Below are positions 1-27,088 of a stretch of 27,881 bases of DNA, one piece after another; position 1 is the first letter of the stretch, and each line of letters begins with the position of its first letter. The position numbers were made by a program, and so were the translations under genes. The notes beneath the pieces are model-generated. The model made no database searches. It saw nothing but the letters and a program-made list of their open reading frames with translations, and was not told where the DNA came from. Source of the DNA: a virus (Duplodnaviria > Caudoviricetes); the IMG/VR virus record IMGVR_UViG_3300020044_001685, positions 1-27,881 of that record; one strand, 5' to 3'.

Positions 1-1
1 T

Positions 2-370
2 GCTGCGATATTTACAGCAAGCATTTCGACTACTAGCTTGACTGTGACGGCTACAACTCAAGGCACAATTGCTATTGGTCAGACGCTGTACACAACAGGT
101 TCTGGATTTACTGCAGGCACTACGATTACTGCAGGTAGCTCAAGCCCATACACGGTTAGTGCATCGCAGACAGTTTCTTCGTCCACGTTCTACTCTGTAT
201 CACCGGGTGCTTACATGGCTTATCAGATCAGCGTCCCACCTAATGCGACATTGATCGTAATTGATAAGACAACCTCACTGTATATCACTGAGAACCAAGG
301 CATCATGGTGGCTTCCGGTACAGCGAGTGCGTTGACCTTTGCAGCTACGTTTGAACAGATCACCTCGTAA
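2..370 (+). CDS. Virion structural / tail-fibre-associated protein, 5' truncated
   Basis: The frame is open from position 2 (AAIFTASISTTSLTV...), so the TTG start at 38 is probably not real. A Thr/Ser/Gly-rich beta-strand segment is followed by the C-terminal YQISVPPNATLIVIDKTTSLYITENQ...FEQI segment, typical of small phage structural proteins that precede fibre genes. Confidence 0.7.
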   Translation, partial: AAIFTASISTTSLTVTATTQGTIAIGQTLYTTGSGFTAGTTITAGSSSPYTVSASQTVSSSTFYSVSPGAYMAYQISVPPNATLIVIDKTTSLYITENQGIMVASGTASALTFAATFEQITS

Positions 371-378
371 GGGCTGAC

Positions 379-1227
379 ATGGGACTTCGTTATCCCGGTG
401 GTTATGTCACGGCGACATTTAATCCGCTTGCCTACACTACGGCTGCTGCTAATCTGCTAGTTGTTGCTGGCGGGGGCGGGGGTGCGGCTGGTGGCGGCGG
501 CGCGGGTGGTTTTAGACTTGTATCTTTTGGAATTGTAATAGGCACAACCTACAGTATTACTGTTGGCACTGGCGGTACGGGAGGTACTGGAGGCGCTTCT
601 AGCACTCCAGCTTCGACTGCGGGTGTTGATTCAATTTTTACTGGCGTTACGGCTACTGGAGGCGGTAGGGGCGCTAGTATAAATGCGTTTTTTGCGGCTA
701 GTTCGGGCGGGTCGGGTGGTGGTGCTGGCGGGACATCGAATGGAGATAACATTGGTGCGGTTGGTACAACAGGTCAAGGAAATAATGGCGGCGCAATAGG
801 TGGTCAAGCAGCATCTCCTTATCCTGCGGCTGGCGGTGGCGGTGCTGGTTCAGCAGGTCAAAACCCACCTAGCGCGTCTGTAGCAGGCTACGGAGGTTCA
901 GGCGCTCCAACCGTAATCACTGGCCCCCAAACGTATTTTGCAGGCGGTGGAGGCGGCGGGACTTATGCCGCAGGCACGGGGGGTGTCGGCGGTCAAGGCG
1001 GCGGTGGGGCTGGTAGCGGATCTGCTTCTGGCACAGCGGGTGTTGTAAACACAGGATCGGGCGGCGGGGGTTCTGCCAACGGTGGTACGGGCGGTGCGGG
1101 TGGCAGCGGCATAGTCATCGTAAGAAACGGTAGAGCTGCGGCTTCATTCACAGGTTCACCTACAATTACTAACGTCGGCAGTGACTTTGTATATACATTC
1201 ACTGGCAACGGATCAATAACATTCTGA
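379..1227 (+). CDS. Glycine-rich domain tail fibre / receptor-binding-type protein (282 aa)
   Basis: Contains LVVAGGGGG...GGGGAGG, many GGxGGxG runs, and ends GGSGIVIVR...YTFTGNGSITF. N-terminal YPGG motif. AAGGG lies upstream of the ATG. Confidence 0.8.
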   Translation: MGLRYPGGYVTATFNPLAYTTAAANLLVVAGGGGGAAGGGGAGGFRLVSFGIVIGTTYSITVGTGGTGGTGGASSTPASTAGVDSIFTGVTATGGGRGASINAFFAASSGGSGGGAGGTSNGDNIGAVGTTGQGNNGGAIGGQAASPYPAAGGGGAGSAGQNPPSASVAGYGGSGAPTVITGPQTYFAGGGGGGTYAAGTGGVGGQGGGGAGSGSASGTAGVVNTGSGGGGSANGGTGGAGGSGIVIVRNGRAAASFTGSPTITNVGSDFVYTFTGNGSITF

Positions 1228-1234
1228 GGTTGAT

Positions 1235-1657
1235 ATGGCGCACTTCGCAAAGCTTGATGATAATAACGTGGTGCTGGAAGTCAACGCACTCAACAACCAT
1301 GAGCTAGTCACTAGCAAGGACACAGTAGACGAGAATGGCAACGTGGTCGTATCTCTGGTTGAGTCTGAAGAGAAGGGTATTGCATTCTTAACTGCGTGGT
1401 CAGGCGGTCATACTAACTGGAAGCAGACAAGCTACAACGCTACATTCCGTGGCAAGTTGGCAGGTATTGGCGACACGTATGACCCAGTAACAAATATGTT
1501 CATATCGCCTGTAGTAGAAGCGCCAGCAGGTCTACCTACAATGAGTTTGAACTTACTAGAGACTCAGCAAGCACCAGCAATAACTTCACAGGAACCTGTA
1601 GGGCTGACATCAACTGCTATCCCTGCGTTAACTTCAGCACAGATAACGGGGCTATAA
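1235..1657 (+). CDS. Small fibre-associated protein (possible assembly chaperone), 140 aa
   Basis: MAHFAKLDDNNVV...WKQTSYNATFRGKLAGIGDTYDP is a pattern I recall following Gly-rich fibre genes in aquatic phages. GAGG RBS upstream. The function is inferred from position. Confidence 0.65.
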   Translation: MAHFAKLDDNNVVLEVNALNNHELVTSKDTVDENGNVVVSLVESEEKGIAFLTAWSGGHTNWKQTSYNATFRGKLAGIGDTYDPVTNMFISPVVEAPAGLPTMSLNLLETQQAPAITSQEPVGLTSTAIPALTSAQITGL

Positions 1658-1658
1658 C

Positions 1659-3677
1659 ATGCCACAGTACCAAGGTGTATGGACGCTAGAGCAACAAGCT
1701 CAGGCGCTGACTAACCAACAATGGGTAACTGACCCTAATTTCAAGAACACTACTCTGCTGTTACAGGCAGACGGTACAGGCAGCGGTTCGCAGAATCAGA
1801 CCTTCCTAGACGGTAGTACCAACAACTTTTTCATCACGAGAAACGGTAACACTACCCAAGGATCGTTTTCGCCATTTAGTCAGGCTCCGGGGTATTGGGG
1901 GAATTACACAAGCTCAGGAAACTATTTATCCGTAGCTAGTAATGCGGCTTTTGCTTACGGTACTGGCGCAATAACTATTGAATTTTGGGAATGGTCAACA
2001 ACAACACCTACTTCTGCGGTTGAAGTTTGGGTATCAAACGGTTCCAATAACTTAAACATTCAACGTAGCAGTGGTGGTTTTTACAATGTATATGATGGAA
2101 CAGATAGAGTTTCTACAACTACTGTTTTATCAAACCAATGGAACCATGTTGCTTTTGTTCGTCAAAGTGGTGGGCAAACAAACCTGTATGTAAATGGCGT
2201 GAGTGTTCTAAGTTGGACTTCATCGGTTAACTACGGAAACGATACGTTTGTAATTGCTGGTTCTGGGTCTTTCCCGTTTCCGGGGTATATATCCAACATA
2301 CGTGTTCTTAAAGGAACGTCTTTATACACGGCAGCATTTACGCCACCAACGTCACCATTAACCGCTATTACTAATACATCACTGCTTACCTGCCAATCAA
2401 ACAGGTTTGTAGATAACTCTGCTTCGCCATTAACACTAACTATTACAGGTTCCCCATCCGTCCAAGCCTTCGGCCCTTTTGCTCCTGCGCTGCAATGGAC
2501 ACCAGACGTAGTAGGCGGGTCTGGGTATTACGACGGAAGTGGTGATTACTTAACGTATGCACCCGGAGCTGGAGTTGCATTTGGCACTGGTGATTTTACT
2601 GTTGAGTTTTGGATATACCCGCTTACATCAATTAGCCAAGTATATTTAATGGATGCTAGGAATTCAGGGCAAACATCTAGTTGGGCAATAGGTTTTAACT
2701 TGAATAATACTGGTGCTGGTCAATTTACATTTTTTAATGGTGTTGCTGGCGCTGCGTATAACGAATCATCGCAATCATGTGTTTTAAACCAATGGAATCA
2801 TTGCGTTGTTGTAAGGTCTGGCACAACATTTTCAATGTTCACAAACGGCACAAGAGTTTTTACCACAACCAACTCAACCAATTTTAGTTCTTCGCAAACA
2901 CTGTCCTATATAGCTAGGGGTCAAGGAACTGGTTCAGAATTTTATTACACAGGCTATATGGTTAGTAATCGTATAGTTAAAGGTACGGCAGTTTATTCGC
3001 CGTCTGCTACAACATTAACAGTACCTACTATCCCATTAACTGCAATTACGAATACTCAGCTTCTTCTTGGTTGTACCAACGCCGGTATATATGACGGCAA
3101 GATGGCGAACAATCTGGAGACAGTAGGCAACGCACAAGTAGCTACAAGCCCTGTGAAGTACGGTAGTGGGAGTATGTACTTTAATGGAAGTAGTGCGATT
3201 ACAGCCAGACTTTCAGATTTTTTTAGTTTTGGCACTGGCGATTTTACTATTGAAGCTTGGATATACATAACAACTACTGGTACTGGAACAATAATTGATG
3301 CAAGGTCTGCTGATGTAATAAATGCTTATATATTTAATGCAACATCTGCAAATAAATTACAGTTTATATATGGATCAAGTTTAAGTATTGTATCTACAAC
3401 TGTGCTGTCTAATAATATATGGACGCATGTTGCTGTTTGTCGCGCAAATGGTGTAATTAGAATTTTTGTAAATGGCGTCGTTGACGCAACTACTGCAACT
3501 TATACTTCAGCTATTAATGCGGCAAGCTTTGCTGCTATTGGTGGTGGTAGGTCTAGTGGTTCTGATGCTGTTACAGGCTATTATTTTAACGGCTATATAG
3601 ATGATTTCCGTATATCCAAAGTAGCACGTTACATAGCAAACTTCACGCCTCCACAACAGGCACTGCCGAGACAATAA
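1659..3677 (+). CDS. LamG / concanavalin A-like lectin domain virion protein, 3 domains (672 aa)
   Basis: Three repeats of (F/I)T(I/V)E(F/A)W...W(N/T)H(V/C)(A/V)xxR...(Y/F)xNG...GY(I/M)xxxR(V/I)xK...Y, separated by TLLL/TxLL linkers. Confidence 0.88.
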   Translation: MPQYQGVWTLEQQAQALTNQQWVTDPNFKNTTLLLQADGTGSGSQNQTFLDGSTNNFFITRNGNTTQGSFSPFSQAPGYWGNYTSSGNYLSVASNAAFAYGTGAITIEFWEWSTTTPTSAVEVWVSNGSNNLNIQRSSGGFYNVYDGTDRVSTTTVLSNQWNHVAFVRQSGGQTNLYVNGVSVLSWTSSVNYGNDTFVIAGSGSFPFPGYISNIRVLKGTSLYTAAFTPPTSPLTAITNTSLLTCQSNRFVDNSASPLTLTITGSPSVQAFGPFAPALQWTPDVVGGSGYYDGSGDYLTYAPGAGVAFGTGDFTVEFWIYPLTSISQVYLMDARNSGQTSSWAIGFNLNNTGAGQFTFFNGVAGAAYNESSQSCVLNQWNHCVVVRSGTTFSMFTNGTRVFTTTNSTNFSSSQTLSYIARGQGTGSEFYYTGYMVSNRIVKGTAVYSPSATTLTVPTIPLTAITNTQLLLGCTNAGIYDGKMANNLETVGNAQVATSPVKYGSGSMYFNGSSAITARLSDFFSFGTGDFTIEAWIYITTTGTGTIIDARSADVINAYIFNATSANKLQFIYGSSLSIVSTTVLSNNIWTHVAVCRANGVIRIFVNGVVDATTATYTSAINAASFAAIGGGRSSGSDAVTGYYFNGYIDDFRISKVARYIANFTPPQQALPRQ

Positions 3678-3687
3678 GGAATAGAAG

Positions 3688-6600
3688 ATGAGCGACAAAT
3701 ATCCCGGTGGGTTTGTAACGACAGGTGCGCCAGCAGGGTACTCTGTTGTGTTTGATGGTACGGGCGATTATTTAACTGCGGCATCTAGTTCAAATCTTAC
3801 GATTGGTACAGGTGACTTTACTATCGAGGCTTGGATATACCCAATAAGTTGGGCTGGCAATTCAACTATAGTTGCTGGAAATGGATCAATTAATTCCCCC
3901 CTGTTTGCTCAAGTTACTTCAACTGCTTTAGGTTTTGCAGTTGAAGGTGTTGGTTGGCTTATTACTGACGGAGCCTTACCTACTCTAAACACATGGTCAC
4001 ATGTAGCCGTAACTCGTTCTGGCACTACCGTAAAAATTTTTATTAATGGTGTGCAGTCTGGATCAACAGTTACCAGTAGCGCAAATTTCTCAAACCCTAT
4101 TAGAACTATTGGAACAAAAAACGGATCAATTGATTTTTTTGTAGGGTATATATCAAATGTTCGTGTTCTTAAAGGTACGGCGTTGTATACGACCACGTTC
4201 ACGCCTCCTACGCAAATGTTTCCAGTTACAAACACGCAATTGTTAACATGCCAAAGCCCTACTATTATCGACAACAGCACTAATGCACTTGCAATCACTG
4301 TTGCAGGCGACGCTAAGGTCAGCAATTTCACACCGTTTGCTGGATACACAGGATTTAACCCTGCGCTTGGTGCTGCGGCTGGTGGTGTATGGACGTTAGA
4401 CGAAGCTGCATATTACCAAGGTACACGTAAGTGGCCTATCTACGACCCGTACTTCAATCAGACCACGCTGATGCTGCATGGTAACTATAGAGGAACAGTA
4501 GATAGCACAGGCACTCCTGTGTACCAAAACAATACGTTCTTAGATAGCTCGGTTAACAACTTCACCATCACCAGAAATGGCAATACGACCCAAGGCACGT
4601 TCACGCCTTTCTCGCAGACGGGGTGGAGTATGTACCTCCCCGGTGCTAACTCTAGCTATGTTCAAACACCTTCTAGCACTACCACAGCGTTGTTAGGTGG
4701 GTCGTTAACTTCTTTAGGTTCATTGTCATTTACTATTGAATGCTTTATTAATACACCCGGAAATATATTCCTTGTCGGTGCTTGCGACCCCGGTGGCGGC
4801 ACTGCGGACATGATATTAAGTATTGGCTCGGACGGTACTTTATCGTTTGGCGCTACTTTTAGTGGGTATACCACTCGAACTAGTACAGGTGCAGCTCCGC
4901 TTAATACGTGGTGTCATGTAGCGTGGGTAGTTACTGGTAGTTATGTGTATTTCTATGTTAATGGCGCACCAGCGGGTTCTGCTACGGTAGGAAACACTGC
5001 CGCATCGTATGGGCAATTAATTTTTGGCGGCTACAATAACAGTTTTACATCTAAACAATATATATCTAATTTCCGTATAACTAAGTCAGCTATTTATACA
5101 GGCGCATTTACGCCGCCAACAACTAACTTAACAGCGACAACAAATACAACTTTATTGGCATTCCAAGGTAATAATTTTGCAGACAACAGCGCAAATAACT
5201 ACACGCTTATTAGAAATGGTACGCCATCCATCCAAGCCTTCAGCCCGTTCGTTCCTGCGTACATCACGCCGACGACGTATAGCAATTGGTTTGATGGCAC
5301 TGGGGATTATTTAAGTTCTTCTTCGGCTAACTACACGGCTACAGGAGACTTTACTGTTGAAGCTTGGTTCTACACCTATAGCAACCCTAGCTTTGGCGGG
5401 ATTATTAGCACCCGAAATTCTACTGGAACTAACGGGTTTAATATAAATCTTGATAGCTCACAAAAGATACGATTCTTCATTAACAATAATGATTTTCCTG
5501 CCGGTTATGTTTCGTATAATTTAAATCAGTGGTATCACGTTGCTTTGGTTCGTTCTGGTTCTGGATCAAACAATGTAACTGCTTATGTAAACGGTATATC
5601 CGTAGGTTCCGTAACAAATACGGCAAGTACAGTAACAAGCGATTTAGTTCTTGGTAGGTTTTATACAGAATTAGATAACTACTATTTAAATGGTGTAATA
5701 AGTAATGCGCGGTTTGTAAATGGCACAGCTCTTTATACAGCTAACTTTACACCGCCGAATGCTCCATTCCCAACTGGAACAACCAACCAACAACTACTGA
5801 CATGCCAAGCCAGTACGATGATTGACTCCAATACGTACACTACGGCTAAAACAATCACGGCTAACGGCAACGTCAGACCTGTAGCATCCCCTACCCCATT
5901 CCCAGCAAAGGTAGATACGACTACATTGAACTCCGCCTACAGCACATCATTGATAGGTGGTAGTGCGTACTTTGATGGTAGTGGGGATAGCTTGTCGTTA
6001 AGCAGCACATCGTTAAATCTTGGTTCAAGCGACTTCACAATTGAAACGTGGGTTTACGCTACGACTACTGAACGCGATTGCATAATTGGGTCAATTTCTG
6101 ATTCAGCGGGTCTTAGTGCATGGATGTTAATGATTAACGAATCAGGAAGCCCGTATAGATTTTATTGCCGATACAACGGTGGAACAGTTTTAAATTACCT
6201 TGTAGGTTCTGGTAACTTCCCTGTAAATCAATGGACGCATTTTGCTGTAACACGCAATGGTGCAAACCTTCGCATTTTTAGCAACGGAGTCCAAGTAGGA
6301 ACAACTAATACGTCGTTAAGTACGTTTGCGATTGATAACGCAAGCACAAATTATTATTTTGGCAGAACAACCGATGACACAGCTAACTTTACTGGTTACT
6401 TGTCAGGTACTAGAATTTTAGTTGGGACGGCTCTTTATACGCAAAACTTTGCGCCGCCGTTAACGCCACCTACAGCAATAACTAATACAAGACTTTTAAC
6501 TAACTTTACCAACGCTGGCATCTTCGACAACACGGCTAAGAACGTATTGGAGACTGTAAGTACAGCGCAGATCAGCACTGCACAGAGTAAGTATGGTGGT

Positions 6601-7101
6601 AGCTCTATGTTTTTTAATGGAAGCGGAAACGCATTAAAAGCTCCGTATATTCCTAGTATGGATTTTGGAACTGGAGATTTCACTATTGAGTGCTGGGTGT
6701 ACACAACAAACACAAGCCCCGGATATAGCCAAACAGTATTAGCTAGACATGGGTCAACTGGTGGAACTATTTGGATAATTCAGATTTTAAATGGCGGTAC
6801 TTCTAGAATTGTTTTGAGTGGTAGCGTTGTTTGTGCAGGAACTACAGTAGCGGCAAATACATGGACTCATATTGCATTTACGCGTTCAGGGACATCATTA
6901 AGGGCATTTAATAATGGTGTATTGTTCCAAACAGTTACTGATTCAACTAGTTTGTCTGGAACACAGATTTTATCTGTTGGAGCGCAATCTGATGTTGCTG
7001 AGTCGTTTATTGGCTATATAGATGATGTTCGTATTACTAAAGGCGTAGCGCGTTACACCACAAACTTCACACCACCAACATCACAACTACAGGATCAGTA
7101 A
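3688..7101 (+). CDS. LamG / concanavalin A-like lectin domain virion protein, 5 domains (1137 aa)
   Basis: Five LamG-like repeats (TIEAW, TIECF, TVEAW, TIETW, TIECW), each with WxH(V/F/I)A and NG motifs. Paralogous to 1659..3677. AAGGA RBS. Confidence 0.88.
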   Translation: MSDKYPGGFVTTGAPAGYSVVFDGTGDYLTAASSSNLTIGTGDFTIEAWIYPISWAGNSTIVAGNGSINSPLFAQVTSTALGFAVEGVGWLITDGALPTLNTWSHVAVTRSGTTVKIFINGVQSGSTVTSSANFSNPIRTIGTKNGSIDFFVGYISNVRVLKGTALYTTTFTPPTQMFPVTNTQLLTCQSPTIIDNSTNALAITVAGDAKVSNFTPFAGYTGFNPALGAAAGGVWTLDEAAYYQGTRKWPIYDPYFNQTTLMLHGNYRGTVDSTGTPVYQNNTFLDSSVNNFTITRNGNTTQGTFTPFSQTGWSMYLPGANSSYVQTPSSTTTALLGGSLTSLGSLSFTIECFINTPGNIFLVGACDPGGGTADMILSIGSDGTLSFGATFSGYTTRTSTGAAPLNTWCHVAWVVTGSYVYFYVNGAPAGSATVGNTAASYGQLIFGGYNNSFTSKQYISNFRITKSAIYTGAFTPPTTNLTATTNTTLLAFQGNNFADNSANNYTLIRNGTPSIQAFSPFVPAYITPTTYSNWFDGTGDYLSSSSANYTATGDFTVEAWFYTYSNPSFGGIISTRNSTGTNGFNINLDSSQKIRFFINNNDFPAGYVSYNLNQWYHVALVRSGSGSNNVTAYVNGISVGSVTNTASTVTSDLVLGRFYTELDNYYLNGVISNARFVNGTALYTANFTPPNAPFPTGTTNQQLLTCQASTMIDSNTYTTAKTITANGNVRPVASPTPFPAKVDTTTLNSAYSTSLIGGSAYFDGSGDSLSLSSTSLNLGSSDFTIETWVYATTTERDCIIGSISDSAGLSAWMLMINESGSPYRFYCRYNGGTVLNYLVGSGNFPVNQWTHFAVTRNGANLRIFSNGVQVGTTNTSLSTFAIDNASTNYYFGRTTDDTANFTGYLSGTRILVGTALYTQNFAPPLTPPTAITNTRLLTNFTNAGIFDNTAKNVLETVSTAQISTAQSKYGGSSMFFNGSGNALKAPYIPSMDFGTGDFTIECWVYTTNTSPGYSQTVLARHGSTGGTIWIIQILNGGTSRIVLSGSVVCAGTTVAANTWTHIAFTRSGTSLRAFNNGVLFQTVTDSTSLSGTQILSVGAQSDVAESFIGYIDDVRITKGVARYTTNFTPPTSQLQDQ

Positions 7102-7268
7102 TGAACATAACTTTAAACTTCACTATTGATGAAGTAAACGCTCTGTTAACAGCTTTAGGGCAGCTTCCTTACGTTCAGGCTGCGCCGTTGATTCAGGCTA
7201 TCCATAATCAAGCTATACCGCAGGTTCCTGCTGCTAATACTGAAGAGCCAGAGGTCGCAAATGGCTGA
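7101..7268 (+). CDS. Small hypothetical protein, 55 aa (MNITLNFTIDEVNALLTALGQLPYVQAAPLIQAIHNQAIPQVPAANTEEPEVANG); missing from the ORF track
   Basis: Translated by hand. The ATG overlaps the upstream stop (TAATG at 7099-7103) and the stop overlaps the next start, filling the gap exactly. Confidence 0.85.
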   Translation: MNITLNFTIDEVNALLTALGQLPYVQAAPLIQAIHNQAIPQVPAANTEEPEVANG

Positions 7269-8459: not shown

Positions 8460-8974
8460 TGCTGACATTACTTTCAACACTCGTTAGTTTTTTGATGGGC
8501 GGCTTGCCTAAAATACTCGATCTGTTTCAAGATCGTGCTGACAAATCTCACGAACTAAAGCTGGCTCAATTGCAGACAGAACGCGAAATGCAGTTATTAG
8601 CGGCTGGTTACGCAGCACAACAACATATAGAAGAAATCAAGCTGGACGAGATAAAGACGCAGACAGCTTCTGCGGAGAAAGTCTCGCTAATCGACGCACA
8701 ACAAGCCGAGATGAGTGCCATCTATGCCCACGACACTAGCCTTAATGAAGGCACATCCACATGGATGAAAGACTTCCGTGCATCAGTCAGACCAGTAATT
8801 ACTTACGGGTTCTTTTTCCTACTGGTTGGTATTGATTCTGTGCTGGCGTACAAAGGTTTGACTAGCGGGGTTGAGTTTAATGCGTTGGCTGACCAGCTTT
8901 GGGATAACGAGACTCAAGCGTTATTTGCTTCAATCATAGCGTTCCATTTCGGTGGACGGGCGTTTGGCAAATGA
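8459..8974 (+). CDS. Putative holin (3TM, gene-transfer-agent-release type)
   Basis: N-terminal hydrophobic helix, a coiled coil, the W..DFRASVRPVITY motif, two further TM segments and a terminal FHFGGRAFGK. Directly upstream of the lysozyme. Confidence 0.7.
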   Translation: MLTLLSTLVSFLMGGLPKILDLFQDRADKSHELKLAQLQTEREMQLLAAGYAAQQHIEEIKLDEIKTQTASAEKVSLIDAQQAEMSAIYAHDTSLNEGTSTWMKDFRASVRPVITYGFFFLLVGIDSVLAYKGLTSGVEFNALADQLWDNETQALFASIIAFHFGGRAFGK

Positions 8975-9447
8975 TTAGCGAGAAGGCTTTAAAGATGATC
9001 GCCCACCACGAAGGTGTGCGATTAAAGCCGTATCAGTGCCCAGCTAAGCTGTGGACAATAGGCGTGGGTCATGTGATTGACCCTAACCACGGCAAGCTAA
9101 AGATTGAAGACAGGGTTGGCTTACCTTGCCCAGAAGGTTGGAACAGAGCATTTACGATGGGAGAGGTCGATGCCATTCTTGCAAAAGACCTTGAGCGGTT
9201 TGAGCGTGGAGTTCTTAAATACTGTCCTAGTGCTGGCTCTAGGCAAGGCTGGATGGACGCTCTGGTCAGTTTTAGCTTCAATGTAGGCTTGGGTACTCTT
9301 CAGCGGTCTACGCTGCGCCAGAGGCACAACAGAGGCGATTACGAAGGTGCTGCAGAGGAGTTCTTGAAATATACAAAGGCTGGTGGCAAAGAGCTCAAAG
9401 GTTTAGTGAACAGACGTAAAGATGAGCGTGCTCTTTATCTACTTTGA
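8971..9447 (+). CDS. Endolysin, phage lysozyme (glycoside hydrolase family 24)
   Basis: HEG...PYQC...WTIGVGH catalytic region (E14-x8-C23-x5-T29), DALVSFSFNVGLG, and C-terminal GLVNRRKDERALYL. Confidence 0.95.
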   Translation: MISEKALKMIAHHEGVRLKPYQCPAKLWTIGVGHVIDPNHGKLKIEDRVGLPCPEGWNRAFTMGEVDAILAKDLERFERGVLKYCPSAGSRQGWMDALVSFSFNVGLGTLQRSTLRQRHNRGDYEGAAEEFLKYTKAGGKELKGLVNRRKDERALYLL

Positions 9448-9476: not shown

Positions 9477-9644
9477 ATGAAGGCTGTTTGGAATAAACCC
9501 CGCCCAAAGGATTTAGGCAAACCTGAGAAGCTTAGTCCGAACCAAAAGAAAGCTGCAAAAAGCTTTGCCAAACGGACAGGAACCGCATACCCATCGTTAG
9601 TAGCCAATATGCATGGCGCTAAGGCAAAGAAAGGTAACTGGTAA
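9477..9644 (+). CDS. Small basic protein, 55 aa (MKAVWNKPRPKDLGKPEKLSPNQKKAAKSFAKRTGTAYPSLVANMHGAKAKKGNW); missing from the ORF track
   Basis: Translated by hand. Strong AGGAG RBS at 9466-9470. The stop overlaps the next ATG (TAATG). Confidence 0.85.
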   Translation: MKAVWNKPRPKDLGKPEKLSPNQKKAAKSFAKRTGTAYPSLVANMHGAKAKKGNW

Positions 9645-10273
9645 TGGCAGCTGTAATGACATACACCTCACTGGCAGCGGATATTGCCAGCTACTTGGAG
9701 CGCTCAGACGCCCAAACTATCGCCAAGATTCCTACCTTCATTATGCTGGCTGAGCAGGTCATCGCCAGTGAGATTAAATTTCTAGGAAACTTGACTGTAA
9801 ACAACAGTACGATGGTTCTAGGAACGGCTGTCATTGAAAAACCTGCCCGTTGGCACAAGACAGTCTCAATGAACGTGGTGGTTGCAGGCGAAAGACAGCC
9901 TGTTTTCTTACGTAAATACGAATACCTGCGGGAATATTGGCCTGATGCTACAGCTACAGGTGTTCCAGCTTACTACGCAGACTACGACTATACGCATTGG
10001 CTAGTAGCTCCTACGCCTGCGGCTGCTTATACCTTTGAAATCCTGTACTACCAGCGCCTGCAGCCGTTAGATGACTCTAATCAGACTAACTGGTTTACTG
10101 AGTACGCCCCACAGGCTTTGTTATATGGCTCGTTATTACAGGCTATGCCTTACGTAAAGAACGACGACCGCATCCCTATGTGGCAGGCTCAGTACCAGCA
10201 GATTATCCAGACACTTAAATCTGAAGATCTCCAGCGTATGGGTGATCGTCAAGCTGTTGCAATGGATAGCTAA
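9644..10273 (+). CDS. Putative head-tail adaptor / tail tubular protein A-like (209 aa)
   Basis: MTYTSL...I..YLER N-terminal helix, central G.P.YY...VAPTP...Y..EILYY, and C-terminal ALLYGSL..A helix. Size and position fit podovirus adaptors. Confidence 0.7.
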   Translation: MAAVMTYTSLAADIASYLERSDAQTIAKIPTFIMLAEQVIASEIKFLGNLTVNNSTMVLGTAVIEKPARWHKTVSMNVVVAGERQPVFLRKYEYLREYWPDATATGVPAYYADYDYTHWLVAPTPAAAYTFEILYYQRLQPLDDSNQTNWFTEYAPQALLYGSLLQAMPYVKNDDRIPMWQAQYQQIIQTLKSEDLQRMGDRQAVAMDS

Positions 10274-13328: not shown

Positions 13329-13572
13329 TAACGTATCCCTTATTTACGACCCAAGAAACCATACGTTTGATAGCTGGGCTTCGCTTATGTGTGAGTTGTA
13401 TGCAGCTCAACAGTTAGAGATACCTGCCAAAGATACTGATTGGCGTACATGGGGGGAAGGTCTTAAAGCTATTGATGTGTTCACTAACGAAGCTGTGCCG
13501 GGGACTATTCCATTCGATAACTGGATGGATTGGGCTCAGGCTGTCGTTGGTGCTGTTCAGCCAAGGGAATAA
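13321..13572 (+). CDS. Small Trp-rich hypothetical virion-module protein (83 aa)
   Basis: The ATG at 13321 overlaps the upstream stop (ATGGCTAA) with AGGGG upstream, so it is preferred over the TTG at 13297. Confidence 0.75.
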
Positions 13573-13574
13573 TC

Positions 13575-16500
13575 GTGTCAGTTTCAGGATTACCAAAACT
13601 TGCCGACTTTCAGAAAGCTATTGCAGCCGTTAAAGCTGCCAATACTAAGTATAAGAACGCTCAAGATAGTTTGCAGCCTTCTCAGGCGGCTATTGATAAA
13701 GCCAAAGGGCTTTTAGACACAGCTAAAGGCAAGCTTGATTCTTTACAAAATGACCATAACAATAAAGCGTATTTAAATAACCCAACATATCAATCTTCTT
13801 ACAGCGCATATCAAGATGCTGCAAACAAGGCTAACTCTCTTGAAAGCTATTGGCGTTCAAGGGATTGGTTAAACAGTAATGCTGCCTATCAGAATGCTGC
13901 TAACGTATACAACACAGCTAAAGACTTCATAGATTCTGGCAAGTATCTACAGAATAATTCTGCTTATCAGACAGCGGTTAATAATTTAACAGCAGCTCAA
14001 CAAAAACTTGAAACAGCTAAAAACTACCTAAACTCTGAAGACTATCTAAACAAGAACTCAACGTATCAGAACTTGTTGTCTGCTCGTCAAACAGCTGAAA
14101 ACACGTTAAATCAAGCACGAGACTTTTACGACTCTGGCAGGTATTACAAAGATAATTCAACGTATAACAATTATGTTAATGCGTTTAACACGGCTGATCA
14201 AAAGCTTAACCAGTTACGTGACTGGAAAGACTCTGGTCGTTATCTTGAAGAGAACTCAACGTATAAGAATGCTGTAAACGCAATACCTTCAAAAGAAGAT
14301 GCATTACGTGCAGCAGAAAGCAAGCTAGATAATTGGTCTGGTGCTCGTTCTGGTACTGCTTGGAATAATGCTGTATCTGCAAAAGTGGCTGCTGACAATG
14401 CTTTTGTTGCGGCTCAAACAGCTAGAGATAAAGCTGCTGAGGCGGCATCCAATGCTGCTGACACGCTTATTAGAAACCAAGACACTACACGTAGCACGGC
14501 AGAGACAAACGTCAATAAGACTAGAGACTCTTTAGAAGTTGCGGCTAACAAAGCTAGAGAGACTGCTGAGAATACTTTTAACATTGTCAGAGACAATATT
14601 GATAGAACTAAAGATTCTTTGCGCCAAACTGCAGAAACAGCTGTAAATACTGCTCAATCTGCTTATGAGAACGCTCAGCCTGCCGTAGATAAAGCTAAAG
14701 AAACAGCCACTAATGCCGCTAACACTGCAAAAAATACAGCAGAAACAAATAAAAACATTGCTGAGAATAAAGCAGATGATATTGCATGGAATACTTGGCA
14801 AACAGCATCTAAAGCAGCTGACTCATTAAACACTAAAGCTAATGATATTGCTAAAGGGCTTGAGTCAGTATCGAACAAAACTGTTGACGCACAAAAATCT
14901 GCTGTTGATGCACAAAACGGAATTTGGGAAACAGCGCAAAACAAATACAACGACGTTTATAACGAACTAAAGCCAGACCTTGAAGATTACAACGCCAAAG
15001 TAGCTGACGTTTCTAATTACGCTCAAAATTTTAAAGACAGCATATCAGGTATGTCTGCTGCTGATATTCCTGCGGCTAAAGCAGTGCTTAGCCAATTTAC
15101 TGATGAAATTAAAAAAAGCGGCATACAAGAGTTTCAAGACAAAGTTGCCCCATTATTTTCTAGTTCTAATTATGACTTTTCGCCTTTGTCCAGTGGGTCA
15201 ATAAGTTTAAATACTGCCGCTCAAAGACAAGTTTTAGTAGATTATCAAAACAAGTTATTCGATGATGCAAAACAAGAACGAATTAACGAATGGGTAGATA
15301 AAAACCCCGGAAAGACTGCTGCTCAAGCCCCAACTCAATTAAAGACTGCACAGCCAACTTCAAGCGATTGGACATTTAATTCTGCGCCAATAATGGGCGC
15401 TGCAGGAAGTAGATACACCCCTAGTGTTGGTTCTGCCAGTGAAAAATACAATGATTTTGTGAAAAAAATGGGGAGTGAAACTGGCTCCCCAGAACAAATA
15501 GCAATGAAAACTGGTGTTTGGGATCAGGCTATGTCCTCCCTGCCAAGAGAAGACTTAGCTGCTATAGCTGCAAAGTATGAAAGTTATGGCTCTGGTGCCT
15601 ATGACATCTATGGTGCTGGAGAAGATGTAAAGTTAAACAAAGCTTTTGATAATGTTAATGCAGGTTATTTTGCTCAAGTTGATAAATACACTGGAATGCC
15701 AATTCTTAATCAAGCAAAGCTTGATGCTGTAGTAAATAAGTATGGAGATAGCATTAAAGGTAATAGCAATGCTAGAGCTGCTTTTGCTAGTTTTGGTTGG
15801 GACATGATGTCAGATGGTGCCCAGATTTTGCACGGCCCAGCTATCGTTGGTTTGTATCAAGGAACATACACTACTGGGATGGGTCAACCCACTAAAGGCA
15901 TATTAAATGCAAAAGGCCAGTTAGCTACAGATGCTGATTATTTAAATTCCGCAAAGCAATTAAAACTTAATACTGATGAGTATTACAGACCAATGAAGTT
16001 TGTTGCAGCTACTGCATCTGGATATAGCCCCGGAGAAAAAGCAACATCAGACAATTCTGCCGAATATACAGACCCAAGAACTGGCGAAACTTATCTTGCT
16101 CGAATAAACCAAACAGATAATCCGGGTGCTTTTGCTTTTGAATTAGATAAAGGAAGGTTATTCGCAGACATTTCTAAGGGGACTAAAGATTATTATTTAG
16201 TCGCTAATGCTGTTGAAAATGTCGGAGCTAATAATCCTACTAGACATGCTGCTGTTTTATTTAAAGCAGACGGAAGCGGAAATCTTGCGCCTGTACTCGA
16301 CGAAAAAAACCAGCCACAAGTTAGTTATTACCAAGCAGAACGTGTTCACCACAGTGATTTTATGGAAGACTGGGGTGGATTCTTAATGATCGCCTCAATG
16401 ATTGCAGCTCCTTACATGAGCGAATACATAGCTGGAAGTATGGCTGCAATGGAAGTAAGCGCTGCAGTAGCTCCTACGGCGTTTACGATGGGTTTACCAG

Positions 16501-18677
16501 CAGTTACTTTAGGTCAAACTATTGGAATGACTGCAGTTAATGTACTTGCTAGTGGCGTTACAAATTCTATTATGTCTGGCCTTACTAATGGTGGTGATTT
16601 TAGTAATGCTGGTGCAGCTTTTGTAAGTGGCGCAAGTGGTTCGGTAGTTAATACAAGCTCTAATAAAATTCTTGAAACTGTTGGTATTAACCAATCTACT
16701 GTTGAAAAAATTGCTGAGGTATCTAAATTACAGCCAGCGCAAGTGTCTAACATGCTGGCTAATACTATTACTGTGGGTGCTGTAGGAACTGCGCTTGGTG
16801 ACCCAAATGCTTTAAATAACGCAATTATTGGCTTAGCTGGTCAATTTGTTGGATCTGAGGCTAAGAATTTAGTTACTGACGCCATGAATGGTGCTGATAC
16901 TAAACTGATAGCATCAGTATCTACTGCTGCGGGTAACGTAGGAAACATCGCCACTCAAACAACTCTAAATGGCGGTGATGTAGGTACAGCAATTACAAAC
17001 GCCATGCCAGCGATTATTAATGGGGCAGTTAAAGCAGGCGAGGCTGCAGCGAATGCACCTAAAACTACTACTAACACTAATCAAGTTACCTCACCAAGTG
17101 ACTTTGCTGTAACTCCGGGAAACACAGCATCACAGCAATTCCCTCTGCAGGATAGATTAAACACAGACCCAAACACTATGAGCAATGAAGCTCGTATTTG
17201 GTATGAGAGTGCTGTAGAGCAAGGGATGGATAAAAATAATGCATTAATTTATGCAAATATAATTGAAGACGGTATAAAAAACCCAAGCCCTTATCTTGGT
17301 ACTGACCTTGGTACAGTTCAATATGGCCCTGCACTAGCAAAAGATGTTCTTACGCTTGGGTCAACTCCATCTCAATTAAAAGAACTTGATGATATAGCTA
17401 ATAAAAGAAAAATATCGCAAATTACTGGAACTGATATTTCTGCAGACGATATTAAATTTATGTCGGATGCGTTTAATTCTGTGTATGGCGTCCCAAAAAC
17501 TTCTACAGGAACTAGCACATCTAGTTCTACAACTGGTTCTGGCGCAAGTACAAAAGCACAGGTAGACGCCGCTAATGCACAGCAAGCTCCTGCAGGCTCT
17601 AATACCACAACAACAGGCGGTACAGGTACGGATGTAAATGATTATAGAAACATCAAAGAAGTAAATGACCCATATCTAAAAACAGCATCTGATGTTGCTA
17701 ATGTTTTGTTTTCTTTTGGCACTACGCCCACTAGTGAAACTTCTGGGTCTGCTGTGTTTGGCCCCGGATCGTCTGTGTTCGACGCCGCTACTGGAAAAGA
17801 AATTCAAAATTTTGCCAAAGCAAACCCAAATGAATTTTATTTGTTTGCTAAAGACTCATACATAAAAAACAATATACCTCCAGATGTATCTGTAACTCTT
17901 TTAGATGCTGCAACACAAGAAAAAATTAAAAAAGACATAGTTGATAAAGTCGTTGCTTCTGAAAAAATAACGGCTGAAAAAACGCAAACTATTCCAGCAA
18001 CTACACCTGTTACTACGCCAACTAACACAACAAATACAACAGCGCCTATTGTTGAAAGTGTACCGGGTGGTGGTAGTGGTGGTGGCGAAAGACAACCAGC
18101 AAATAGTAATAATTTGCCTAGCGGTGGAATTGACACAACTAAAACGCCATCAAACATTACTCTTCCTGATGGTAGTGCAGGCAGTATTTTGCCGGGGACG
18201 GGAACACTTCCATTACCCGGAGAAAAAGATGGCACTTCAATAGGAACTGGCACAGGCTTAGGAAATACTAATACCCTTGGCTTGATTGGTACTGGCACTC
18301 AAGGCACTGGAACTGGAACAGGCACAGGCACAGGAACGGGTACTGGTACAGGTGTAGGAACTGGTACAGGCTCTGGAACTGGATCAGGTACTGGTAGCGG
18401 CACAGGTTCGGGCACTGGTACTGGAACAAATATATCAGGCGTGTTAGCAGCATTGGCGGCTGCTATTGGAGGTGGTAAAGTGCCAACAGGTACAAGTGGG
18501 GCAGGTGGTTTGACGCAAGTCCCAGCAGGCTACACAGCAGTAACTACGCCATTGGCAAAGCGTCCAATCGGTGATTTATACCCAGTTTCGTTTACGATGA
18601 TGACTCCAGAAGAAATAGCTGCTCGTTCGACCACAAAAATGGTTAGACGTGGCGGTTTAGTTTCTATGAGGAAATAA
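13575..18677 (+). CDS. Giant putative internal virion / ejection protein (about 1700 aa) with helical repeats, a hydrophobic central region and a Gly-Thr tract
   Basis: A 5.1-kb ORF. GTG at 13575 follows AAGGGA and the upstream stop, so it is preferred over 13530. Position downstream of the nozzle gene matches podovirus ejection proteins. Confidence 0.7.
13932..14290 (+). repeat. 99-bp / 33-aa degenerate tandem coding repeat (DSGxYxxxNSxY...)
   Basis: Units start at 13932, 14031, 14130 and 14229: [52 protein letters not shown]. Confidence 0.85.
18288..18428 (+). repeat. Gly-Thr/Ser dipeptide coding repeat (about 47 aa)
   Basis: GGN-ACN hexamer repeats with synonymous variation, encoding [12 protein letters not shown]...[12 protein letters not shown]. 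Confidence 0.9.
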
Positions 18678-25288: not shown

Positions 25289-25710
25289 AAAATCCTCTTA
25301 AATTTATCTACTGGGATAAAAACCATTGGCTCTTGATCTTGTGAATCTTCTCTGTCGTACCTGCCGCCAAACCCATAAGTAACTTCTGAGCTGCCTGCCT
25401 TATAGAAAAACACTCCGTCATCCCATTTAATAATCAAGACAAACGGAATATTCATCTCTACAGCCATCTCTTTGCCCTTTATCCACTTCTGTAATGACAG
25501 CATAAGAGTAGGGTATTGACTGCTAGGGTTGAGCCTTCGTTTAATTTCAGCCACATACTTTGGCTTACCCTTTTCCATAATTAGCCAGTCAACGTGATAG
25601 GCAATCTTTAGTTTATGGAATACGTAGCCATTTTTAGCTGACAGAAGACCCGCCACTTCTTTTTCGTTGGCTAGATCTTTACTGCTTTCATACATAGGAC
25701 GAGACGTCAT
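25285..25710 (-). CDS. Small PD-(D/E)XK restriction-endonuclease-fold protein (141 aa)
   Basis: N-terminal helix with E, then YHVDW...AEIKRR (D...ExK). ATGA overlaps at both ends. Confidence 0.65.
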   Translation of the reverse strand: MTSRPMYESSKDLANEKEVAGLLSAKNGYVFHKLKIAYHVDWLIMEKGKPKYVAEIKRRLNPSSQYPTLMLSLQKWIKGKEMAVEMNIPFVLIIKWDDGVFFYKAGSSEVTYGFGGRYDREDSQDQEPMVFIPVDKFKRIL

Positions 25711-26285
25711 TTTTTACTACGCTCTTGAATCTTGCGTTCAATCTCGTCATACGCTTCTTCAGCCCTAACCTTAGAGTTAGCAACATCGTCTTGACGTATT
25801 TGATCAACCACTAGCTTATTCATGTCACCCAGTGGGTACTTCAGAAGAACGTAGGCAACGTACTTATCGCCTTCTTGGAATATCTGTGTCTTCTCTTCTT
25901 GAACCCCACTCATACGCATTTTGAGGGCTTCTTGGACAGTAGCTATAGATACGTTGTTAGATACCTGAGCCCCACTAGTAGGGCCGTTCTCTTCCATAAA
26001 CAACTTCATGATGGAATTGACTTCACCTTGGATGGTGATAGCTAACTGGGATCTAGCAAGCATGGTGGCTTTAGTAACAGCCATTTGGACATCACGGGAC
26101 TTGGCTGCAGCCTTCTCATACAGGGCATCAGCATCTTTGGGGGGCTTTAGATACCAATCAGGTATCTGGTCTATCTGTCTGGCGACTTCTTTTTTTATGT
26201 CTTCTTTAGCACTTTGAGCTTCAGTTTTAAATATACTGCAGCCAACTAAAGTGATTAAACAAATTAACGCTAATAATTTTTTCAT
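25707..26285 (-). CDS. Lipoprotein, LPP20-like (192 aa)
   Basis: Signal peptide MKKLLALICLITLVG-C with an LVGC lipobox, and the PDWY...A..KA...AR.QLA pattern of LPP20-type lipoproteins. Confidence 0.75.
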   Translation of the reverse strand: MKKLLALICLITLVGCSIFKTEAQSAKEDIKKEVARQIDQIPDWYLKPPKDADALYEKAAAKSRDVQMAVTKATMLARSQLAITIQGEVNSIMKLFMEENGPTSGAQVSNNVSIATVQEALKMRMSGVQEEKTQIFQEGDKYVAYVLLKYPLGDMNKLVVDQIRQDDVANSKVRAEEAYDEIERKIQERSKK

Positions 26286-26296
26286 GGTAATTCTCT

Positions 26297-27088
26297 CTAT
26301 TGAAGTTTATGGCTCTTGTCTTTAGCCCACACAAGGTAAGGCATTCTGACGACTCTTCTTTCGCTTTTCGGGATCTCTTGAATTCTCTGGTTAAACTCTG
26401 CTAAAGAGAATGTCTTCCTAAATGAGATTGGCCGCTTTGTTGCAACTGCAATCATTACTTCGCCTGCTATGTTCCCGTTAACCTTAACCTTTGGGAAAGT
26501 AGCCCAAAGAACTAGTGGGTTTTCAGGAAGCTCTACCTTGCTAGTAATTACTTCTTCAAACTGATACAGGAACTGCACTTGCTCATGACGCTCTAAGTAC
26601 GGTGAAAAGTAAAACAGGTTTAAAAACATTGGTTGGGTTGGATTGACTATTACTTTGAATAGCTCACCTTCCCGTAATTGAGTTTTAGATACCCGTATTT
26701 CTGGGTCAAACCCAATGTCAGACTTCCCACTGTCTTTAGTAAGAGCTACCTCTACAGCGACTTTACAAGACCGTATGCTTGATCCTGATACCTCTGTACT
26801 CAACTTTCGCAGGCCAGTCACCATGCCCTCTGTGTATGACGTAGACGAGATAAGCATTTGACATACTTCCTCGCTTGCTTCGTTACACAGCTGGTATTGA
26901 GACGTTGATACAGCTTCGCCTGCTACTTGTCTTACTACGCTAAAGATCGCTTTATTTTCTGCAGCCATACACGCAGCACGTTCCGACACGTCAGGGCCAA
27001 ACTGTTCTATTGCTTCCCCTCGATGCCACTCTGGTTGCGATGATGATGTAATCAGGCTAAACAGAAGTGACAGTATTTGTTTTTCCAT
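26297..27088 (-). CDS. Putative exported protein with a C-terminal DUF4384-like domain (263 aa)
   Basis: N-terminal hydrophobic stretch ILSLLFSLI, four Cys in the N-terminal domain, and C-terminal LREGELFKVIVNPTQPMFLNLF...GEVMIAVATKRPI resembling DUF4384. Confidence 0.6.
   Translation of the reverse strand: MEKQILSLLFSLITSSSQPEWHRGEAIEQFGPDVSERAACMAAENKAIFSVVRQVAGEAVSTSQYQLCNEASEEVCQMLISSTSYTEGMVTGLRKLSTEVSGSSIRSCKVAVEVALTKDSGKSDIGFDPEIRVSKTQLREGELFKVIVNPTQPMFLNLFYFSPYLERHEQVQFLYQFEEVITSKVELPENPLVLWATFPKVKVNGNIAGEVMIAVATKRPISFRKTFSLAEFNQRIQEIPKSERRVVRMPYLVWAKDKSHKLQ

Follow-up and report, generated by a model that had tools for sequence, protein, structure and literature searches.

A two-part peptide tag, found whole, interrupted or split, that probably docks interchangeable heads on a jelly-roll hub in aquatic tailed phages

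The contig IMGVR_UViG_3300020044_001685, analysed here over its whole length of 27.9 kb (27,881 nucleotides; hereafter the window), comes from a tailed phage whose head genes of interest lie at the left end. Two short motifs in the encoded head proteins, YPGG and GVWTL, are, by sequence comparison, parts of one bipartite tag of about 45 residues, with a Y half (YPGG-I) and a G half (G-V-W-T-L, a helix and an invariant Trp). From the genetics of several hundred related genes, we infer that this tag, whether whole, interrupted or split, probably docks interchangeable heads on a hub that is modelled as a jelly roll and predicted to cap a fibre. The evidence also leans, less firmly, towards a natural split-tag system in which two heads each bring one half and complete the docking element in trans on the hub, the number of heads per socket being doubled by a stop and a new start in the linker; this plug grammar of fibre tag, hub and two-part tag would recur in thousands of aquatic podo-, sipho- and myophages.

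The window carries two modules of the tag, A and B, arranged as follows.

2–370 (+): 3′ portion of the hub (adaptor) gene, truncated where the contig begins; hub hidden Markov model (HMM) match of 58.7 bits, hub-family C-terminal strands at about 209–370.
379–429 (+): Y half only, module A, residues 1–17; fused to a G half in the related loci L322, L375 and L366.
430–1227 (+): glycine-rich head domain of the Y-only protein; PF21722, E = 8.5e-18.
1235–1657 (+): small MAHFA-type protein, a likely folding partner of glycine-rich heads, from co-occurrence across cassettes.
1659–1724 (+): G half only, module A, residues 1–22; aligned to the fused L322 protein.
1725–3677 (+): three-LamG head of the G-only protein; PF13385, three matches.
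3688–3738 (+): Y half of module B plus a short linker; motif position and alignment.
3739–4350 (+): inserted LamG repeat that separates the two halves of module B, ends approximate; PF13385 at residues 23–162, not in the uninserted L366 relative.
4351–4437 (+): linker (with FNP) plus G half of module B, GVWTL at 4384; motif position and alignment.
4438–7101 (+): remaining four LamG repeats of the 1,137-amino-acid (aa) head; PF13385, five matches in all.

YPGG lies at residue 5 of both the 379–1227 and 3688–7101 proteins and GVWTL at residue 6 of the 1659–3677 protein and residue 233 of the 3688–7101 protein; neither motif occurs in any other open reading frame (ORF) of the window. A preliminary description of this DNA had placed both motifs correctly in these proteins, as well as the repeated DNA words at 391 and 3700 and at 1674 and 4384. 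Its single LamG domain in the 1,137-aa protein is correct for the interval between the two halves, but the protein has five LamG stretches in total; the 672-aa protein has three. Its inclusion of FNP in the motif core was rejected, because alignment places the FNP of the 1,137-aa protein on a later linker proline of the uninserted second gene of L366 and not on the YNPL/FNPL that Y-only proteins carry. Most whole tags are without FNP.

Several lines of evidence support a single tag with two separable halves. First, the halves recur. The tag was followed through four locus sets, anchored on the tail adaptor (80 loci), a hub start pattern (120), a G-only pattern (120) and a Y-only pattern (120), comprising 4,933 ORFs. 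The G-half HMM was used with a cut-off of 13.5 bits, the best reversed decoy scoring 13.2; the Y-half HMMs were at first trained solely on proteins with both halves, and a separate pattern was added for an NGGIIG variant. In profile–profile comparison, G-only N-termini match whole tags at E = 9e-15 (probability 98%) and Y-only N-termini at E = 9e-6 (probability 83%), and the motif was found again in hundreds of genes, placing its recurrence above chance. Over all loci, in redundant counts, there are 130 genes with a whole tag, 28 with an inserted tag, 202 with the Y half only and 201 with the G half only. A PDB sequence search with the tag gave nothing significant, and a literature search that included the motif words and covered freely readable main texts only found no description of this tag or of the hub.

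Second, the tag takes up whole domains between its halves, as the preliminary description had proposed for a single module. The G-half glycine lies at residue 20–32 in whole tags and at residue 232–306 in inserted ones, with no intermediates, and the inserted domain is a LamG domain in the window clade and in S-SKS1 and a glycine-rich domain of about 260 aa in another clade. In 12 of the 28 inserted genes, the G half forms the very C-terminus, the protein ending 17–18 residues past the G-half glycine; here the halves flank the glycine-rich domain and nothing follows. The passengers, in the 60 of 233 head clusters that were scanned, include Gly_rich_2, LamG, fn3, DUF7483, RCC1, Lcl_C, SPRY, SBBP and propeller domains or belong to no family. 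Because they are unrelated, neither half is an integral part of an adjacent folded domain. Among cultured phages, both heads of HTVC033P and of S-SKS1 are of the inserted type, and DSL-LC04 has two whole tags. The tagged-head cassettes of low-GC relatives (L085, L107, L124, L131 and L433) are followed downstream by runs of 2OG-Fe(II) oxygenase-like genes, so annotated in HTVC033P.

Third, close relatives record the split. L366 has two whole modules; in L322 and L375, module A is whole and module B is interrupted by LamG; and in the window, L336, L356 and L367, module A is split and module B interrupted, a glycine-rich head and a MAHFA-type gene standing between the halves of module A. The N-termini of the 379 and 1659 genes are thus naturally fused in close relatives, where the 3688 tag is also found without its LamG insert, and the 672-aa protein, over its entire length from residue 3, matches the stretch of the fused L322 protein that runs from residue 29 to the end (40% identity, E = 1e-108). 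These fusions and this alignment identify the split pair as module A, a paralogue of the module in 3688. The two halves described earlier are real, but the split pair is a second, paralogous module and not the 3688 module cut in two. The simplest event, its direction suggested by sequence comparison, would be insertion of a head, a stop, a partner gene and a new start into the linker. As to the partner gene, MAHFA-type genes are found in 24 of the 29 cassettes that encode a glycine-rich head, as against 3 of the 49 that do not, and by analogy with Pam3 gp25 their product may be a chaperone of glycine-rich heads. The protein encoded at 1235–1657 has no Pfam or PDB sequence match. Its C-terminus (1560–1657) contains LTSxQI-like repeats, for which a sub-threshold Atlas lead to the ALTTAQ repeat PF20080 was obtained (15% of members, score 0.79).

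Fourth, the halves occur in pairs. A cassette was called complete when 2.5 kb of sequence extended beyond the last tagged gene, and deduplication at 92% hub identity reduced the unselected sets, that is, those anchored on hub or adaptor, from 113 to 39 cassettes and all sets from 283 to 84. The 39 unselected cassettes comprise 10 with both Y-only and G-only genes, 6 with Y-only genes alone, none with G-only genes alone and 23 with neither (Fisher P = 1e-5). On inspection, 5 of the 6 Y-alone cassettes prove to carry a tag that is whole or inserted and whose G half has diverged. Automatic calling gives as many Y as G halves in 75 of the 84 cassettes, and eight hand corrections raise this to 83; these 83 contain no module (6), one (22) or two (55), and never more. 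The nearest classified gene upstream of a G-only gene is Y-only in 122 of 129 cases, and a Y-only gene is followed downstream by a G-only gene in 104 of 109, the exceptions being divergent halves, extra G-only copies (L377) and broken upstream genes (L118 and L070). Co-occurrence of the half-tag genes, which the preliminary description had proposed to check with HMMs, thus stands in these sets, although it fails to reach significance in the MAAPNIV set described below. Genes of about 190–220 aa, which by eye we take to be endonuclease-like, repeatedly lie between cassette genes (L089, L118, L138, L240, L345 and L382).

Fifth, the pair is kept while its cargo changes. The heads behind each half are exchanged as the Y/G pair stays, the split pair comes in at least three sequence subtypes, and Y and G subtypes move as matched pairs even where one hub carries two split modules. 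Mutual information between the halves is 76.5 against 50.7 for shuffles, but kinship confounds this difference, which was not counted as evidence. A quick tree of 79 hub rows requires 11 changes of the split label, 6 of them forced by well-supported branches.

The DNA words noted earlier raise a different explanation, in which the motifs are junctions for head shuffling and one old split was inherited as a block, with no function in trans. The window does contain identities of 11–12 base pairs, split forms do cluster in one clade, and the third-position identity of same-genome paralogous G halves shows a small excess (60 of 175, against 0.28 for GC-matched other genomes, with 24 of 1,000 resamplings as high); Y halves show none (53 of 122 against 0.44). 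The word matches are present as described, but they consist mostly of the codons of the motifs and are no separate evidence of conservation. Against a background of 70 repeated 11-mers and 27 repeated 12-mers in positions 1–7200, and given these third-position identities, a DNA repeat acting as recombination site was rejected as the main explanation. Conservation is at the protein level, with synonymous sites free and Gly and Trp invariant, and the several split-pair subtypes, each kept while heads were exchanged, argue further against a recombination scar, which we regard as very improbable.

A number of observations weigh against docking by a tag completed in trans. L138 is a true exception, with a Y-only gene for which no G partner was found, and L377 (228–5407) has one Y-only gene, then three G-only genes, then another Y-only gene; the extra G-only genes are possibly competing G partners. 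One or two modules per cassette are no obvious fit to a trimer. The sets drawn by G-only and Y-only pattern were picked on one half, which enriches split cassettes without forcing the partner. Split cassettes lie mostly within one large clade of the hub tree, so the co-occurrence signal partly reflects shared descent. In an out-of-sample set of 39 complete cassettes behind MAAPNIV-type hubs, analysed with frozen HMMs, a single cassette is split (on the same contig as L216), 27 are without tag and Y/G pairing is not significant (P = 0.35); many of the untagged ones show divergent whole tags by eye. Nine MAAPNIV loci have 10 compact G-type heads, with a G half, an FP/YP remnant and no Y-only partner. 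Some hubs bear heads with other end motifs, the hub of S-CBWM1 has no tagged neighbours, and the Bellamy head is without a G motif. Finally, a whole tag modelled alone gives a mean predicted local distance difference test (pLDDT) score of 58.6, with only a helix at 31–39, and yields no interface; such a low-confidence fold fits a docking peptide. In a separate observation, the hub family in L559, L567, L582, L597 and L629 precedes sets of three or four large heads that have N- and C-terminal motifs of another kind in common, a second head grammar.

The strict rule of equal Y and G numbers is therefore a property of one large lineage. The proposal that two polypeptides complete the motif in trans draws support from co-occurrence and from the natural fusions, but such completion is not a general rule: behind another hub lineage, compact G-type heads stand without a Y partner. 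That a G half can stand alone and a Y half almost never does suggests that G is the anchor and Y the rider.

The same compact heads would suit independent sockets, in which Y and G occupy separate sites on the hub without contact between them, and the pairing persists because the tip is stable or functional only with both sites filled. Such sockets would explain insertion and splitting equally well, and the two halves are alike, sharing a G-hydrophobic-hydrophobic-T core in their profiles. Against them stand the asymmetry between the heads, Y-only ones being almost never seen in the absence of a G-only gene (1 real exception in 109) while G-type ones can lack a partner, and the matched subtypes of Y and G with two split modules per hub; the mutual information of the halves points the same way, with the kinship caveat given above. 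We consider independent sockets unlikely.

The hub itself belongs to a family of proteins of about 125 aa, represented in the window by the ORF at 2–370, which is its 3′ part. The family has at least 7,997 clusters at 90% identity, and two hub start patterns retrieve about 2,200 and 1,600 IMG/VR stretches. Searches found no Pfam entry, no PHROG match and no PDB relative by sequence. A full-length relative is modelled as a β jelly roll (pLDDT 91.9), and a fold search returned generic jelly rolls only (Z = 9.5 to 8.5, root-mean-square deviation 2.5–4.7 over 92–112 residues), the best, at Z = 9.5, being Ena1B and nucleoplasmin-type folds; chains of GP4, A1002, A-1(L) and T4 gp10 were absent among the matches listed. 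Predicted-structure neighbours include annotated virion structural proteins, for example in S-TIM5. Among 120 pattern matches from a genome collection, 9 proved to be hubs; all lay on contigs of less than 9 kb or stretches of 620 bases, with the same head types, and these are probably phage contigs in bins. The window hub has an extra β-rich segment (2–208) ahead of its last strands, similar-looking or propeller inserts are seen in other hubs (P0002, P0005 and P0003), and the window insert matches that of P0002 weakly (E = 1.3). Because several hubs carry inserts, the hub too tolerates domain insertion.

Gene order runs from a fibre with a C-terminal hydrophobic tag to the hub and on to the tagged heads; in the window, the fibre gene falls outside the contig, upstream of its start. 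By a strict pattern, the fibre tag directly precedes 127 of 178 hubs, most of the other 51 showing visible variants, and a hub lies no more than two genes away from 147 of the 158 ORFs that end in the tag; the fibre–hub fusion P0001, a single sequence, is without the fibre tag. In seven loci (L343, L345, L357, L329, L240, L348 and L333), three diverged hub paralogues of 131, 110 and 123 aa stand in a row between the fibre tag and the Y, G and whole genes, which suggests a trimeric hub; by its sequences, the row is a candidate heterotrimeric hub. A complex predicted from the whole 379 protein, residues 1–31 of the 1659 protein and the L332 hub in three copies scored 0.01, 0.44 and 0.00, at a guessed stoichiometry, with the fibre tail excluded and controls not folded, and weighs neither for nor against docking.

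The first tagged head gene nearly always lies directly after the hub. This position, and the fact that the tag is the sole feature common to unrelated heads, speak against a further explanation, that the tag is an oligomerization or folding neck between heads and the hub is bound elsewhere or indirectly. One or two modules, never three, would suit a head dimer, and this hub family also carries heads whose end motifs differ; yet the inserted forms that stop exactly at the G half leave nothing to oligomerize. A neck of this kind seems decidedly unlikely.

Returning to docking on the hub, the arrangement might work as follows. The hydrophobic fibre tail would plug into a hub oligomer, probably a trimer, on which the G half, as strand, helix and invariant Trp, would be the main anchor. 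The Y half would complete the G half by strand addition, in cis or in trans, folding upon binding. Because the halves need only meet in space, the linker would tolerate insertion or splitting: it could accommodate a domain whose termini lie side by side, or else a head gene followed by a stop and a fresh start, the latter splitting the tag. The termini of the inserted LamG and glycine-rich domains are adjacent. In the split form, the Y-only head would ride on the G-only head, so that a socket could hold one head, a head with a looped-out extra domain, or two heads. In the window, module A is split, with the glycine-rich head and its partner gene on Y and the three LamG domains on G, and module B is LamG-interrupted; one hub type would then carry three different head proteins. 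The attachment of tagged heads and their location on the virion are likewise proposed from sequence.

Should this hold, it would explain how abundant freshwater and marine phages, SAR11 phages included, mount and swap several lectin-like heads; their receptor-binding genes could be recognized by a rule based on sequence, and it would show how gene fission, with completion in trans, can turn one head into two. The cultured carriers HTVC033P, S-SKS1 and DSL-LC04 make it directly testable.

Elsewhere in the window, a SU10-type adaptor (9644–10273), with relatives in Caulobacter phage RW, CRP-901/902, HTVC023P/027P and DSL-LC04, is encoded, as is a lysozyme at 8971–9447; the phage is probably short-tailed. 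A 1,715-aa ORF (13530–18677) of lower GC, which contains an extended region of helical repeats and a tail of GT repeats, has only a weak apolipoprotein-like Pfam match; its neighbours are likely ejection-protein genes. Among the replication-side genes, 25707–27088 (−) holds a 192-aa lipoprotein-like ORF, with an N-terminal hydrophobic stretch followed by Cys, next to a 263-aa ORF for which Pfam gave no match.

The comparisons that follow refer to the accessible parts of the cited texts. S16 gp38 on the tip of the gp37 long fibre (PDB 6F45; PMC6851490) parallels the arrangement proposed here, as a glycine-rich head at a fibre tip with conserved Trp for attachment, three in gp38, and the glycine-rich fibre of Pam3 has a dedicated chaperone (gp24–gp25; PMC9608196). 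In gp38, however, an own three-helix domain binds the fibre trimer directly, one per tip (PMC6851490), whereas here a separate hub gene stands between and one tag serves several head types. The window's glycine-rich head (379–1227) bears a Trp-free half, a 17-residue leader in place of the three-helix, three-Trp attachment domain; relatives have a hub gene between fibre and head. The head has a PF21722 match and no PDB sequence match for its alignment at E = 0.01, and may or may not be of the polyglycine II kind. This is not a gp38 system. A match to the HFTV1 turret was also set aside, since that is a different design, in which, according to the accessible text, a trimeric head is held by a capsid hexamer through a barrel stalk (bioRxiv 10.1101/2024.12.09.627619).

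The bead-chain fibres, namely the A-1(L) gp82–gp81–gp80 neck fibre (PMC10966104) and the chain-like fibres of A1002, GP4 and VP1 (PMC13730344), resemble the system in having small globular subunits joined by terminal segments or β-augmentation and a distal binding head, and in A1002 the nozzle is split, strand complementation between two proteins making it whole (PMC13730344). They are bead polymers or dimers on a rope, whereas the split here is in a head tag of about 45 residues and not in a nozzle, and by analogy they are a looser parallel than branched systems with conserved peptides.

The latter are the peptide-docked, branched receptor-binding systems of K1-5 (gp37 adapter with K5 lyase and K1 endosialidase), G7C (gp66–gp63.1) and KP32 group A (PMC6872550). 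There, a short conserved N-terminal peptide of 7 to 29 residues is carried by variable receptor-binding proteins, an adapter bears two heads, and heads are exchanged between phages; a conserved N-terminal peptide on variable head proteins is present here too. Their adapter is T4gp10-like and their heads are depolymerase spikes, whereas our hub is a stand-alone jelly roll of about 125 aa behind a fibre-tail tag and our heads are lectin-like or glycine-rich. No T4gp10-like D2/D3 docking domain was matched from the hub in Pfam or PHROG, the hub modelling as a generic jelly roll that may still belong to a family outside the matches listed, and no depolymerase family is listed in the scanned head clusters; a peptide that is bipartite, interruptible and splittable is not a feature described in the accessible text of PMC6872550. 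The system fails or leaves open the defining features of K1-5, G7C and KP32, but it works like these conserved-peptide branched systems.

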